Below, piece by piece: positions 8,601-14,089 of a stretch of 49,713 nucleotides of DNA. Every line of letters starts with the position of its first letter. Position 1 is the first letter of the stretch. The notes under the pieces were generated by a model. The model ran no database searches. It was not told where the DNA came from and saw only the letters and a program-made list of their open reading frames with translations. This DNA is from a phage. The position numbers were made by a program, and so were the translations under genes. Location of the stretch: sequence record NC_130088.1; one strand, given 5' to 3'.

Positions 8601-9033
8601 TTATTCGATCCGAGAATTTCATGGCAATGTTGATAAATGGATCGAGCAAGTAGAAAGCGGATTGAATGACGTGATTCAGATTTTTGGTGAAAAGGTTCAC
8701 GGCGCATTAGTTGATATTGCGCCAGTGGACACAGGACGATTCAAAGCCAATATGCAGATCACAGCAAACAAGCCGCCTCTTTACGCGCTCAATCAATATG
8801 ATCCTGATGGTGAGAAAACAAAGGCGGAAGGTCGCAGGACGCTTTATGCTTTATTGCATGGCGGCGGCGCTATTAAATCAATATACTTTTCCAATATGCT
8901 GATTTACGCTAATGCTCTTGAATATGGTCATTCAAAGCAAGCGCCAGCGGGGGTATTTGGTATTGTTGCGATCCGGTTGCGCTCTTACATGGCGGAAGCG
9001 ATAAGGGAGGCGAGAAAGAAAAATGCACTATGA
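8593..9033 (+). CDS. Head-tail joining / tail attachment protein (by synteny)
   Basis: Overlapping start, SD GGAGGG. Confidence 0.4.
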   Translation: MADYSIREFHGNVDKWIEQVESGLNDVIQIFGEKVHGALVDIAPVDTGRFKANMQITANKPPLYALNQYDPDGEKTKAEGRRTLYALLHGGGAIKSIYFSNMLIYANALEYGHSKQAPAGVFGIVAIRLRSYMAEAIREARKKNAL

Positions 9034-9412
9034 ATTATCTGTTGCGGCAAGAATGGCGCTGGCTCAAGAATACGAAAGCGAATATATGATCGCTTATGAA
9101 AACGTTGAATTTACGCCACCAAAAGGCGGCGGCATTTGGCTGAAATATGACTACAAAGAAGCAGATACAATAATTCATGATCTGAAAAGGAAATGCATTA
9201 GTTATATTGGAATGGTTCAGATCGGAATTGAATTCCCGCCAGGATCAGGAATTGATAAGGCTCGCAAGCTGGCAAAAAATATTGCTGATTTCTTTGAAGA
9301 TGGTAAAATGCTTGCGAATGGTTATATTTCAGAAGGTGCGAAAGTGCATCCAGTTCAGAAATCAGAATCAGGCTGGTTTTATCCAGTACGTTTTTATGTT
9401 CGTTACGATTAA
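9023..9412 (+). CDS. Tail completion protein (by synteny)
   Basis: 129 aa, SD GGGAGG. Confidence 0.4.
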   Translation: MHYELSVAARMALAQEYESEYMIAYENVEFTPPKGGGIWLKYDYKEADTIIHDLKRKCISYIGMVQIGIEFPPGSGIDKARKLAKNIADFFEDGKMLANGYISEGAKVHPVQKSESGWFYPVRFYVRYD

Positions 9413-9426
9413 TAAAGGGGGCTATT

Positions 9427-10086
9427 ATGCACTTACCTAACGGAGCACAGATTTTTATTGAGAATACTCGCGGCTCAGAAATCAAAGCAACAGCAATCAG
9501 CAACGCAACAGATCCGGTGTTTACCGCGTCTAATACTGGCGGATTGAAAAAAGGTGATTATGTGATTGTCACTGTATCAACATGGGGTAAACTTCTTGAT
9601 CGTGTACTGCGAGTTAAAGAGGTTAGCGATAACACAAGTTTCACGCTTGAAGGTATCGACACCACTGATGAAAACGTTTTTCCGTCCGGCGCTACTGGTA
9701 GCGTTATGAAAATTGAATCATGGACAGAGATCCCATGCGTACAGGACTTGGGGCAGGACGGCGGCGAGCAGCAGTATTACAATTACCAGTGCTTGAGCGA
9801 TGACCAGGAGCAGCAGTTACCAACCTATAAAAGCGCGGTGTCACTGACTTACACCTTTGCGCATGAGTACGATAATCCGATTTATCCGCTCTTGCGTAAG
9901 GCTGACGAATCCGGCGACGTTAAAGCATTGCGCATGTATGTACCAAAAGCAAAAGAAATGCGACTTTGGGCTGGTGTGCTTTCTTTCAACGAGATCCCAC
10001 AAACGGCGGTAAACGAAATGGAAACCGTTTCTTTGTCGGTATCCCTGAAAGGTCGCTTTACTTTCTTGCCTTCTACTCAGGCTTAA
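9427..10086 (+). CDS. Major tail protein (probable)
   Basis: 219 aa, precedes chaperone G/GT and tape measure; followed by terminator. Confidence 0.55.
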   Translation: MHLPNGAQIFIENTRGSEIKATAISNATDPVFTASNTGGLKKGDYVIVTVSTWGKLLDRVLRVKEVSDNTSFTLEGIDTTDENVFPSGATGSVMKIESWTEIPCVQDLGQDGGEQQYYNYQCLSDDQEQQLPTYKSAVSLTYTFAHEYDNPIYPLLRKADESGDVKALRMYVPKAKEMRLWAGVLSFNEIPQTAVNEMETVSLSVSLKGRFTFLPSTQA

Positions 10087-10090
10087 TTTA

Positions 10091-10117
10091 AAGGGGCGCA
10101 TTGCGTCCCTTTTTTAT
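10091..10117 (+). terminator. Terminator hairpin with embedded TTGCGT -35 and TAATAT -10 17 bp downstream
   Basis: GGGGCGC..GCGTCCC plus T6; TTGCGT-17-TAATAT. Confidence 0.5.
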
Positions 10118-10157
10118 TTGATGTAATATCACCTCAATATTTAACCACTCAGGAGAA

Positions 10158-10478
10158 ATGACAATGGCTAAAATGAAATTGACTCTTGCCCCGCTTCCAG
10201 ATTTCAAACTTCCAGTTAAATTTGTATTGCCGGATGGTAACGAGCAAAAAATTGTGTTTACCGTTAAGCATAAAAAGGCCAGCGAGATTCAAGAGCTTTA
10301 CCAGAAAGAAGGTATTAAAGATTCTGAATTCATCATGAATGTTGCCGTGGGTTGGGATCTGGAAGAAGAATTCAACGAAGAAAACGCGCAACTGTTAGTT
10401 GATTATTATCCTGGCGCGGCGCTGGCTCTTATGGGATCTTATTTAAGTGCGCTGGCAGGGCAACGCGTAAAAAACTAA
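10158..10478 (+). CDS. Tail assembly chaperone (lambda G-like)
   Basis: 106 aa acidic protein immediately upstream of tape measure gene. Confidence 0.65.
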   Translation: MTMAKMKLTLAPLPDFKLPVKFVLPDGNEQKIVFTVKHKKASEIQELYQKEGIKDSEFIMNVAVGWDLEEEFNEENAQLLVDYYPGAALALMGSYLSALAGQRVKN

Positions 10479-10795
10479 AAAGGGCGGTTTATCTGTATTA
10501 TCAGAAACCGCCGACAGATGCAGAATTGCAAGCCGTAGGATTAACCCGCGCAGACTATGAAGGAGAAGATCCGCCAGAGGTCATATTTGATGAAAGTATG
10601 ATGCAATCATGGGATATATTTTGCGCGATGGGTACACAGTGGCGTAGTGCTGGCGCTGGTGCTTACGGTTTTGATTATAATGTTTTGCCTATGTTATTCA
10701 GAATCTATAAAATAGACGATGAAGAAATGGCCTTAAATGACTTGCGCATCATGGAACAAAAAGCACTGGAAATGATGCAAGCAAATAACAAATAA
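10158..10795 (+). CDS. Tail assembly chaperone GT-like fusion made by -1 programmed frameshift at A_AAA_AAC (10469-10475)
   Basis: -1 frame is open from before the slippery heptamer through 10795; no independent SD/ATG for the downstream ORF. Confidence 0.5.
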
Positions 10796-10818
10796 AGCGC
10801 CTACGGGCGCTTTTTTTA
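10795..10818 (+). terminator. Hairpin AGCGCC..GGCGCT plus T7
   Basis: Dyad plus T-run. Confidence 0.5.
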
Positions 10819-10832
10819 TGAGGGTAAAATAT

Positions 10833-13742
10833 ATGGCTGAACAATTTGCAGGTTTAACACTTGGCGTGAACGTCGAGCAGTTAAACAAAGCTGTTAAGTC
10901 GTTACAGGACTTTAAAAAAGCCAACGACGAAGCAAAGAAAGGCGTTGAGAGCTTTGTTAACGAGGAAGAAGTTGCAAAGCAAAAGGCTAAACAGTTAGCC
11001 GATGAATTAGCGAAACAGAGCCGTGAATTTAAGAGAATTCAGGATACAGTTGATCCGACAGCGGCAAAAATGCGCAAGCTGTCACAGGCAGCAAGTGATC
11101 TTGATAAGCTATGGCAAAAAGGGATTGTACCTGATGAAACATTCTTCCAATTAGGGAGCATGTTGGAAACTCAGATCAGTAAATTGGAGCGCAACAAAAA
11201 GGCGCTTACGGAAGAAGGCCGCGCAGCGTTGGAAGAATCACGCGCCAAAGAGAAAGCAGCGGCAGCAGGAAAGAGCTTCCTTGCGGATCTAGAATCACAA
11301 GCGGCGGCTCTTGGAAAAACCAAATCTGAATTACTGGAAATGAAAGCGGCGCAACTTGGCGTAAGTGCTCAGGCCGCACCATTCATTGCACAGCTTAAAG
11401 CGCAAGAAAAACAGATGAAGTTAACCGGAATTAGCGCAGGGCAATATAACCAGGCAATGCGAATGCTTCCGGCTCAGATCACTGACGTTGTAACGTCGCT
11501 GGCTTCCGGTATGCCTGTTTGGTTGGTTGCAATCCAGCAGGGTGGACAGATTAAAGATTCTTTCGGCGGTGTTGGTAATACGTTTAAAGCGCTGTTGTCG
11601 TTTCTGAATCCGGTAAACGTTGGCCTTGCCGCATTAGCCGTTTCAATGGGTGCTCTTGTTAAGGCTGGTTATGATGCGTATAAATCGCAACGTGACTTGC
11701 AAGAGGCGTTGGTGCTGACTGGTGGATATGCTGGCACAAGCGGCGCACAGTTCGATAAGCTGGCGCAGGACATTAATAACAGCACTGATGCGACGATAGG
11801 AAACATCCGATCCATCGCAACAGAGCTTGCAAAATCCGGCAAATTCACTATTGATCAGATTAAATCGATCACAAAGACTACCGCTCAGTGGTCAACGGTA
11901 ACGGGTGAATCAAGCGATAAGATTACTGGTTACTTTGATAAGATTGCTGGCGATCCGGTTAAAGGTCTTGCAGAGCTAAACGAGCAATTCAACTTTTTAA
12001 GCGAAGGGCAGTTAACTTATATTGCAGACCTGGAGAAAACGAAAGGAAAAACGGAAGCAGTGACGGCGGCGACAAAGTTATTTGCTGATGTTATGGATCA
12101 GAGATTAGCTAAACTGGCAGACTCCGCAACGCCATTAGAAAAGATGTGGACGAACATTAAAAAATGGGCGTCAGATGCTTGGGGATGGGTTGGAGATCAC
12201 ACGCTGGCGGCGCTTAACCTGATTATCGACGTTGTAGCCGGAACGGTTGAGCAGGTTAGATACTTGCTTAATCAGGGTGATATTCTCATTGGTGAATTTA
12301 TTGTGTCGGCAACTAAGACGATGCAAAAAATACCAGGTCTTGATAATGTTGGCGATTCTGTAATTTCGCAACAACAGAAGATCATTAATAACGCCAAAGA
12401 GAACAACAAGGAGTTATTAAAATCAATTGCCGAACGTAACGAGCGAGTCAAAAAAGGCGAGCAGGGTTACATTGACATGATGAAAAATCGTGCGGCGGTT
12501 GAACAGCAATATGCTACTAAAACAAAGGAGAATGTCAGGAAGGAAGCCGAGGAATTAGCCAAACGCGATAAAAAGCAAAAGGCTGAAAAAGTTAAGGTAT
12601 CGGCTGGCGATAAGCTGGAAGAACAATATCAGCGTGATATCCTGGCGTTAGAAACTCAATTAAGAGTTTTGAAAGAGCATAAGACGATCACTGATACCAT
12701 AAGCCAGCAACGTAAATCTTTATGGGCTGAACAGGCTAAAATTCAGATTCTGCAAGAAGCCTCAACAAAGCGGCAACTTACTGATGAAGAAAAAAGCATT
12801 TTAGCCAACAAAGATAAGATCCTGGCGATGGCTGAACAAAAAGCTATTTTAGGAGATCAGATTGTTGCACAAACGCGACTTAATCAGTTGCAAGATAGCT
12901 CAATCAAGTTTATCCAGCAGCAGAAAGCAGCAACAGAAGCACTAGCCAAAACCAGAGGGTTAAGTGAACGTGAAGCAGCAAGAGCGGCGGAACGTGCAAA
13001 GGTTGAGGCTGATTATCTTGCCAAAGGAGGCAAGGAAGGAGATCCGCAACTCACCGCAATGATGGATGCATTAGACAATCGCTATAAAGAGGAAGATGCT
13101 AAACGTGCTGATTGGTTGGCTGGCGCTAAAAATGCCTTTGCGGAGTACGGCGAGGAAGCAATGAACATGTATGATAATATCGGCAACATTGCGAGCCAGG
13201 CGCTAAACGGCCTATCGCAACAAATGGCTGATTTTTTGACTACTGGACAAGCAAACTTCAAAGACTTTGCAAAATCGATCATTAGCCTTATTGTTCAGAT
13301 GATCACAAAGATGGTTATCTTCAATAGCATTTCCGGCATGATGGGCGGCTCAACCTGGACGCTTGGAAGCCTTTTAAGCGGTGCTGGTTTTGCTGGCGGC
13401 GGTTATACTGGCGACGGTGGCAAATATGATCCGGCTGGCGTTGTTCATAAGGGTGAGTTTGTTTTCACCAAAGAGGCAACGCAAAGAATCGGAGCTAAAA
13501 ACCTGTATCGCATGATGCGAGGTTATGCAAACGGCGGTCAAGTAGGAAGCGTGACAACTGGCGGCGCTGGCATCAATCGCGGTGCATCGCAATTTGCATT
13601 TGGTGATATCAACGTTAACATTGACAACGGTCAAGATCCAAAAGGGATGGAAACTGGTATCAAGATGATTTTCACTGAAATGATTCAACGGTCATGCTCG
13701 CAAGGTGGCGAGGTTTATAATTTTGTTCATGGGAGGGCTTAA
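10833..13742 (+). CDS. Tail tape measure protein
   Basis: About 970 aa, long coiled-coil Ala/Lys/Glu/Gln-rich, Gly-rich C-terminus, position after G/GT. Confidence 0.85.
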   Translation: MAEQFAGLTLGVNVEQLNKAVKSLQDFKKANDEAKKGVESFVNEEEVAKQKAKQLADELAKQSREFKRIQDTVDPTAAKMRKLSQAASDLDKLWQKGIVPDETFFQLGSMLETQISKLERNKKALTEEGRAALEESRAKEKAAAAGKSFLADLESQAAALGKTKSELLEMKAAQLGVSAQAAPFIAQLKAQEKQMKLTGISAGQYNQAMRMLPAQITDVVTSLASGMPVWLVAIQQGGQIKDSFGGVGNTFKALLSFLNPVNVGLAALAVSMGALVKAGYDAYKSQRDLQEALVLTGGYAGTSGAQFDKLAQDINNSTDATIGNIRSIATELAKSGKFTIDQIKSITKTTAQWSTVTGESSDKITGYFDKIAGDPVKGLAELNEQFNFLSEGQLTYIADLEKTKGKTEAVTAATKLFADVMDQRLAKLADSATPLEKMWTNIKKWASDAWGWVGDHTLAALNLIIDVVAGTVEQVRYLLNQGDILIGEFIVSATKTMQKIPGLDNVGDSVISQQQKIINNAKENNKELLKSIAERNERVKKGEQGYIDMMKNRAAVEQQYATKTKENVRKEAEELAKRDKKQKAEKVKVSAGDKLEEQYQRDILALETQLRVLKEHKTITDTISQQRKSLWAEQAKIQILQEASTKRQLTDEEKSILANKDKILAMAEQKAILGDQIVAQTRLNQLQDSSIKFIQQQKAATEALAKTRGLSEREAARAAERAKVEADYLAKGGKEGDPQLTAMMDALDNRYKEEDAKRADWLAGAKNAFAEYGEEAMNMYDNIGNIASQALNGLSQQMADFLTTGQANFKDFAKSIISLIVQMITKMVIFNSISGMMGGSTWTLGSLLSGAGFAGGGYTGDGGKYDPAGVVHKGEFVFTKEATQRIGAKNLYRMMRGYANGGQVGSVTTGGAGINRGASQFAFGDINVNIDNGQDPKGMETGIKMIFTEMIQRSCSQGGEVYNFVHGRA

Positions 13743-14089
13743 TGTTAGATGAATTTACCTGGTGTACGCAGATTCAGAGCGGCGGCGGTGTAATGACAAC
13801 TACCAATAACGACAGGGAAGTTGTTTTTGGTAACGGCTATCGCCAAAAGGCATCTTCTGGATTTAACACGGAAAGGAGGGAGTTTTCTATTGTATATGTT
13901 GGCAATGATTATAAGGCTGTTAAAGCATTTATGACGGATCACAGGTTAAAGCCTTTCTTGTGGAAAACTCCAGACGGTAGTTTTGGGTTGTTTACCGTAA
14001 AAGCCGGAACGGTTGGACTAACACCAATTAGCCGAACCGCTCAGGAAGTCAAAGCAACTTTTACGGAAGAATTTACATCAATGCGATAA
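13742..14089 (+). CDS. Minor tail protein M (lambda gpM-like)
   Basis: 115 aa; blocks FGNGYRQ, FLWKTPDG and TFTEEF resemble lambda M as recalled from memory. Confidence 0.75.
   Translation: MLDEFTWCTQIQSGGGVMTTTNNDREVVFGNGYRQKASSGFNTERREFSIVYVGNDYKAVKAFMTDHRLKPFLWKTPDGSFGLFTVKAGTVGLTPISRTAQEVKATFTEEFTSMR

Follow-up and report, generated by a model that had tools for sequence, protein, structure and literature searches.

A probable programmed -1 ribosomal frameshift joins two tail assembly chaperone reading frames in a Tlsvirus phage genome

In the phage DNA analyzed here, the tube (major tail protein) and tape measure genes flank two overlapping reading frames. These are very probably joined by a programmed -1 ribosomal frameshift, of the type known from lambda G/GT, that operates at the heptamer A_AAA_AAC. 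We place the probability of this reading, which draws on comparative sequence analysis, at roughly 0.9. The DNA is sequence record NC_130088.1, and its whole length of 49,713 nucleotides is referred to below as the window. The anatomy of the sequence around the slip site, its conservation among relatives, and protein-coding selection in the -1 frame from the slip site onward were all established directly. A preliminary description of the window had proposed that a -1 frameshift joins the two tail-chaperone ORFs, and the proposal was upheld by Pfam matches, by gene order, by 74 distinct relatives, and by joined coding sequences (CDSs) in close phages. The frameshift has already been annotated and published for nearly identical phages, and the only new point concerns the two-gene annotation of one of them, Devorator.

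The region at 10100-10850 of the window was 100% identical to Citrobacter phage vB_CfrD_Devorator (OL539461; 49,712 bp), a member of the Drexlerviridae, Tempevirinae, genus Tlsvirus. Window coordinates are those of OL539461 plus 6. Many other TLS-like phages matched the same region at 98.9-99.9% nucleotide identity; for TLS itself, Stevie, LL5, U136B, and Sazh the range was 98.9-99.6%. The genes and flanking signals of the tail module are as follows.

9023-9412: tail terminator protein gene, the upstream neighbor of the tube gene
9427..10086, + strand: major tail (tube) protein gene; Pfam Phage_tail_3, E 3.9e-65; so annotated in Devorator, Stevie, and T1
10090..10120, + strand: hairpin resembling an intrinsic terminator, with a T run; 10-bp stem at 10090-10112 followed by TTTATTT (terminator scan); between the tube and chaperone genes
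10152..10156, + strand: Shine-Dalgarno sequence AGGAG of the chaperone gene, 7 nt ahead of ATG 10164; equivalent ribosome-binding site annotated in Stevie and U136B
10164..10478, + strand: zero-frame product, a G-like short tail assembly chaperone of 104 aa; Pfam Phage_TAC_4, E 1.6e-37
10475..10795, + strand: -1 frame extension (T-like, 106 codons plus stop), giving a predicted GT-like fusion of 210 aa; Pfam DUF1799
10794..10820, bidirectional, no single strand: terminator-like hairpin (terminator scan); between the stop of the extension and the tape measure gene
10818..13742, + strand: tape measure protein gene, starting at ATG 10818 or, more likely, ATG 10833; TMP_2, E 4.1e-67, and Tape_meas_lam_C, E 1.1e-21
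13742-14089: lambda M-like minor tail protein gene, downstream of the tape measure gene

The order of genes is thus tail terminator, tube, chaperone pair, tape measure, and lambda M-like minor tail protein, with the tube and tape measure genes on the + strand. The short chaperone matched Phage_TAC_4 (PF08748) over profile positions 1-124 of 124 with a score of 128.9 bits, against a cut-off of 21.1, and a protein identical to it is deposited as UGO53531.1 under the name 'tape measure chaperone protein'. Its homologues numbered 93, with ALAGQRVKN as the most conserved block. The gene most likely starts at ATG 10164, which has AGGAG upstream and is the choice of the deposited records, and not at ATG 10158 of the mechanical ORF list. 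The second half of the predicted fusion (residues 126-205) matched DUF1799 (PF08809) with 46.1 bits, against a cut-off of 26, over profile positions 2-80 of 80. Phage_TAC_4 and DUF1799 were the only families returned by the Pfam scan at E 0.01 or better. The family phrog_17368 (213 positions) covers both chaperone halves, so fused proteins of this type are already present in phage databases. No match at an E of 1 or better was obtained when the 210-aa fusion was searched against PDB sequences, and a Foldseek search gave no match with E below 0.5, including to the HK97 tail assembly chaperone (PDB 2ob9) and other small phage or prophage proteins; structural kinship to these proteins is suggested at most.

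We also observed that the chaperone gene is bracketed by two strong terminator-like hairpins with T runs, and both of these (10090-10120 and 10794-10820) are annotated as terminators in Stevie and T1. Terminators within a late structural operon could tune how much transcript is made of the tube, chaperone, and tape measure genes. At the frameshift site itself, an Rfam scan covering 10050-10900 returned no family, and its three sub-threshold matches fell on the flanking terminator hairpins. The start of the tape measure gene varies between records: the Devorator record uses ATG 10818, and the position chosen in Stevie and LL5 corresponds to ATG 10833, which is preceded at 8 nt by GAGGG.

The elements at the junction of the two chaperone frames are the following.

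10469..10475, + strand: slippery heptamer A_AAA_AAC, the last two sense codons, in zero-frame phase by direct reading of the sequence
10476..10478, + strand: zero-frame stop TAA, abutting the heptamer; TAA in 72 and TGA in 2 of 74 distinct relatives
10483..10512, + strand: hairpin, a possible frameshift stimulator, 7 nt past the heptamer; stems 10483-89/10506-12 and 10492-95/10502-05
10526..10528, + strand: TTG, an internal Leu codon that the Devorator record takes as the 'start' of its second CDS; Leu codon in relatives

The first ORF had been described as ending GTA AAA AAC TAA, and direct reading agrees, with GTA at 10467-69, AAA at 10470-72, AAC at 10473-75, and TAA at 10476-78 in the local context ...CAA CGC GTA AAA AAC TAA AAA GGG CGG.... 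The preliminary description had called A_AAA_AAC at 10469-10475 a canonical slippery site. Its phase with the zero frame is indeed that of an X_XXY_YYZ heptamer, but the term 'canonical' holds mainly for eukaryotic ribosomes (PMC5009743). The -1 frame, which had been said to be open from before the heptamer to 10795, was found to have its upstream stop at 10400-10402, to be open from 10403, and to end with TAA at 10793-10795. It opens 24 codons ahead of the shift point and provides 106 new codons beyond it; the +1 frame is closed 27 codons past the zero-frame stop. Within the last 30 codons of the first ORF, A_AAA_AAC is the sole in-phase heptamer.

By itself the heptamer is weak evidence for recoding. 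This is because the chance of an in-phase X_XXY_YYZ heptamer within the 24-codon overlap is, by our estimate with uniform base composition, roughly 5-10%. We also counted the X_XXY_YYZ heptamers (Y = A or T) that stand in phase within the window's ORFs, taking every ORF of 80 aa or more on either strand. There were 48 in-phase heptamers, and only that at 10469-10475 is followed by a long -1 run past the zero-frame stop (105 codons, the runner-up having 18).

Both this count and a comparison with relatives put the site above what chance would give. Two scans of IMG/VR yielded 81 loci with relatives of the short chaperone, down to about 41% identity; 78 were scorable (79 with the window; chaperone identity down to about 42%), representing 74 distinct 240-nt segments. 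The search patterns of the second scan included ALAGQR[VA]K, so that conservation of the peptide is partly built in, but codon choice, frame arrangement, and downstream sequence are not. The -1 ORF extended 103-106 codons past the stop in 79 of 79 loci, and the +1 frame was shut after 4-38 codons. The slip site always occupied the last one or two sense codons (79 loci, 74 distinct), and a stop directly behind the last sense codon of the G frame was present in all 74 distinct relatives. Among these 74, codon -3 was GTA in 45, GCA in 28, and ACA in 1, its third base always being A, and the four-fold degenerate codons -9, -7, -6, and -4 had all four third bases in use. Codon -2 (Lys) was AAA in 69 and AAG in 5, and codon -1 was AAC (Asn) in 63. 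The arrangement and the slip site are kept among diverged relatives beyond the needs of the protein sequence, with codon -3 always NNA while its neighbors vary.

The sequence beyond the stop carries its own record of selection. The peptide LKRAVYL, encoded in the -1 frame straight after the heptamer, was at least 90% conserved, while identity over the whole extension falls to 49%. Its codons vary synonymously, Lys being AAA or AAG and Arg being CGG (32), AGG (25), CGC (11), or CGA (3). Differences from the window, sorted by codon position in the -1 frame, numbered 503 at third positions and 207 and 152 at the other two. As judged from these substitution patterns, the comparison shows -1-frame translation of the segment between the zero-frame stop and TTG 10526, and across the relatives aligned here the slip site is the only conserved entry into that frame.

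The relatives are not uniform at the slip site itself. Two lineages (L044, L051, L053, L055, L056, and L076-L082 except L080) were found without the full heptamer, reading GCA AAG GTC TAA or GCA AAA GTT TAA at this point. They keep only an A_AAG or A_AAA tetramer, and yet have a -1 ORF of about 104-105 codons, which suggests slippage by a single tRNA-Lys. The exact mechanism of slipping is accordingly not uniform across the family, a point we count against the main reading.

Other explanations for the two frames were weighed against a ribosomal frameshift. The second ORF could be an independent gene that starts at TTG 10526, or by termination-reinitiation after the TAA, with no frameshift involved. 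The database contains many stand-alone DUF1799 proteins, the Devorator record (OL539461) has two separate CDSs with the second beginning at that TTG, and the T1 record (NC_005833) likewise has two CDSs, the T1 phage having a separate 55-aa ORF. The preliminary description had noted that the downstream ORF has no convincing Shine-Dalgarno sequence or ATG of its own, and we found the same: the 20 nt ahead of TTG 10526 (aaccgccgacagatgcagaa) have no Shine-Dalgarno-like run. TTG 10526 behaves as a synonymously varying Leu codon, being CTT in 26 relatives, TTG in only 22 of 74, TTA in 18, CTG in 7, and CTA in 1, and the first 40 codons of the -1 frame contain neither ATG, GTG, nor TTG in 31 of 73 distinct sequences. 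The starts chosen by annotators are inconsistent, giving nine lengths of the second ORF in database records (48, 55, 63, 65, 87, 89, 98, 99, and 104 aa). The 17 codons ahead of the TTG are moreover conserved as -1-frame protein from the heptamer on, which would be unexpected of an untranslated spacer. Based on these observations we consider two independent genes very unlikely.

Slippage could also occur during transcription, if RNA polymerase added one A in the A6 run at 10469-10474 and so produced a subpopulation of mRNA with the two ORFs in frame. Six consecutive A residues are present at the site, slippage on A or T runs is a known bacterial route to the same outcome (PMC5009743), and two relatives have A5 in place of A6, indicating that the length of the run is unstable, at least in sequencing. 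What polymerase slippage cannot explain is the retention of the -1 arrangement with GCA AAG GTC or GCA AAA GTT, where only 3-4 A are present. In bacteria, productive transcriptional slippage is not known to occur on runs as short as A6. The strict phase of the run, NNA AAA AAC, and the hairpin of this clade at a spacing of 7 nt are features of ribosomal slippage, and we regard a transcriptional origin as highly improbable. The arrangement might, lastly, be an artefact or a sign of decay: a single base gained or lost, by sequencing error or in a pseudogene, would have split one ancestral chaperone gene, and no recoding would be involved. Homopolymer runs are prone to error, and the two relatives with A5 do differ by one A; but the same stop and the same -1 offset occur in 74 distinct sequences from many independent isolates and metagenomes, at about 42-99% protein identity, and purifying selection has been retained on both halves. 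This last explanation is scarcely credible.

A programmed ribosomal frameshift would proceed as follows. The majority of ribosomes would translate 10164-10478 and stop at the TAA, producing the 104-aa tail assembly chaperone. A minority would slip back one base on A_AAA_AAC, either with tRNA-Lys and tRNA-Asn both re-pairing on AAA_AAA or with tRNA-Lys alone re-pairing on A_AAA, and would continue in the -1 frame through CTA AAA AGG GCG... to 10795. The product would be a 210-aa fusion, ...QRVK(N or K)LKRAVYLYYQKPP..., with the DUF1799 domain as its C-terminal half. The residue at the junction is predicted to be Asn if both tRNAs slip (...SALAGQRVKNLKRAVY) and Lys if tRNA-Lys slips alone (...QRVKKLKRAVY). 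The deposited fusions write VKK followed by LKR at this point, whereas a tandem slip after decoding of Asn would give VKN followed by LKR. If the lambda system is a guide, the N-terminal part common to both products would coat the tape measure protein, and the tail tube protein would be brought in by the extension. A low and fixed rate of shifting would determine in what ratio the two products are made, and the virion would contain neither of them. The stop next to the heptamer and the hairpin 7 nt downstream probably boost a heptamer that is intrinsically weak in enterobacteria. We infer that the shift occurs, as we do its rate, the residue at the junction, what the stop codon and the hairpin contribute, and which proteins the products bind. 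Our literature searches on T1/TLS-like phages yielded genome announcements only, with no experimental detection of the fusion (by protein gel, mass spectrometry, or reporter assay) and no data on the ratio of products, on the need of both for tails, or on their absence from virions.

Folding of the RNA downstream of the heptamer, which had been put forward as a check for a stimulatory structure, gave a stable hairpin at 10483-10512, at a spacing canonical for such stimulators, with a minimum free energy of -18.4 kcal/mol (z -4.3; 0 of 200 shuffles as good). An equivalent hairpin was present in about 27-30 of 50 distinct downstream segments, from TLS, T1, and allied clades, and was absent in about 20 that retain the heptamer. 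In the alignment, 72% of cells at the positions of the hairpin were paired, compared to 36-48% in slid controls; compensatory changes were few, and the sequence also encodes a conserved peptide. It is plausible that the hairpin is a lineage-specific enhancer and not an essential element. An upstream Shine-Dalgarno-like stimulator, AGGG at 10457-60, was rejected, because it falls in GCN GGN codons and the relatives differ freely at the third bases of these.

The combination of heptamer and hairpin resembles E. coli dnaX in its A-rich lysine heptamer, short spacer, stable hairpin, and enterobacterial ribosomes. The dnaX cassette consists of A_AAA_AAG, an upstream Shine-Dalgarno-like element, and a downstream hairpin. 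The window's heptamer, in contrast, ends in AAC and not AAG, it has no conserved upstream Shine-Dalgarno-like element, and the hairpin occurs in some clades only. The effect of shifting also differs, in that the dnaX shift truncates its protein and the shift in the window would extend it. We did not assign the site to the dnaX type: only the hairpin of that cassette is present, the heptamer having the AAC ending and AGGG showing no conservation at synonymous sites.

According to the review of Atkins et al. 2016 (PMC5009743), ribosomes of E. coli shift far less readily on A_AAA_AAC than on A_AAA_AAG. Such weakness fits a low-level shift, but it also means that the efficiency of the site cannot be assumed; because the lambda products are needed at about 30:1, a weak site is compatible with the biology. 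The stop codon that always abuts the slip site may itself be a stimulator, and the 'shifty stop' idea, in which termination is slow after a slippery run, is well established and is cited in Atkins et al. 2016 (PMC5009743). We tentatively suggest, as a possibility that we consider rather doubtful, that A_AAA_AAC, the abutting stop, and the hairpin form a distinct 'shifty-stop' cassette of the Drexlerviridae, in which slow termination and the hairpin would offset the weak heptamer, and that sister lineages would have re-solved the same problem via bare tetramers (A_AAG_GTC TAA, A_AAA_GTT TAA) or even by +1 shifting (the A5 variants). If this were true, the family would offer a natural series in which the tuning of frameshift efficiency could be studied. 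In any event, the family keeps a heptamer that is weak in E. coli directly against a stop, with shorter motifs in some lineages, and this could be used in studies on the tuning of chaperone ratios.

The gpG/gpGT pair of lambda occupies the same place as the pair in the window, between the major tail protein and tape measure genes, and the rest of the window's tail module is lambda-like. In pairs of this class (Xu, Hendrix and Duda 2004) the second ORF overlaps the first in the -1, rarely the +1, frame and has no translation start to itself, and the window's pair shows this arrangement in the -1 frame. The slip site of lambda is G_GGA_AAG. The window differs from it in its heptamer, A_AAA_AAC, in the stop that abuts the heptamer, and in the hairpin of its clade. 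No match to the sequence families of lambda gpG or gpT was found in the pair by the Pfam scan (E 0.01 or better), and since that scan returned Phage_TAC_4 and DUF1799 only, the pair stands outside lambda's own families. At the sequence level, then, the pair is no member of those families, although it would work like lambda G/GT. The -1 frameshift of lambda gpG/gpGT was described by Levin, Hendrix and Casjens (1993) and by Xu, Hendrix and Duda (2004, 2013, 2014), as summarized in PMC5009743. The lambda 30:1 ratio of products and the binding partners are experimentally established (PMC5009743); for the window's pair we assume them.

Joined forms of this locus are already on record. In the type phage TLS, the genes tfmA, tfmB, and tfmS occupy the same locus, and tfmS is annotated as a two-piece CDS over tfmA and tfmB. 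The records of Citrobacter phage Stevie and of Escherichia phages LL5 and U136B show a 'tape measure chaperone' CDS joined from two pieces and carry remarks such as "frameshift product"; Citrobacter phage Sazh has the joined CDS too. The Stevie paper also refers to the frameshift (PMC4319613). These Tlsvirus relatives, TLS included, have the same heptamer, stop codon, and hairpin as the window. There is no biological difference between them, and the difference is one of annotation only. The deposited 210-aa fusions of Sazh and U136B are each two residues away from the fusion predicted for the window. In an exact-sequence look-up of the window's two possible fusions, neither was found to be deposited, and the near-identical fusions of Sazh and U136B were in the same cluster. 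The listing of two CDSs in the Devorator and T1 records is an annotation gap and does not reflect biology. We propose that a joined 210-aa CDS replace the stand-alone TTG-initiated ORF in Devorator OL539461 and in records like it, such as T1 NC_005833. Frameshifts of this kind are textbook knowledge for long-tailed phages, and this one is on record for Tlsvirus; its significance beyond annotation is small.

During these comparisons we noted several irregular records. Two loci, L042 at about 1806-1870 (IMGVR_UViG_2974632794) and L058 at about 1800-1858 (IMGVR_UViG_2974785742), read GTA AAA ACT AAA AAG GGC..., with A5 where others have A6. Their first ORF runs about 20 codons further, and the extension is in the +1 and not the -1 frame. 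The sisters of these loci (L038-L041; protein P0083) have the normal A6, and the A5 represents either a homopolymer sequencing error or a real +1 variant. In Salmonella phage 36 (L026; IMGVR_UViG_2706796530), the chaperone ORF is frameshifted after residue 38, and the database holds a 57-aa fragment (P0093); this interruption is likely a sequencing error in that genome. The Tlsvirus region also matched 19 'Campylobacter' phage records and, at 99.3% identity, 'Streptococcus phage MBBL140' (OR786094.1; host S. agalactiae); all of these probably represent mislabelled hosts or contaminant phages in a public collection.
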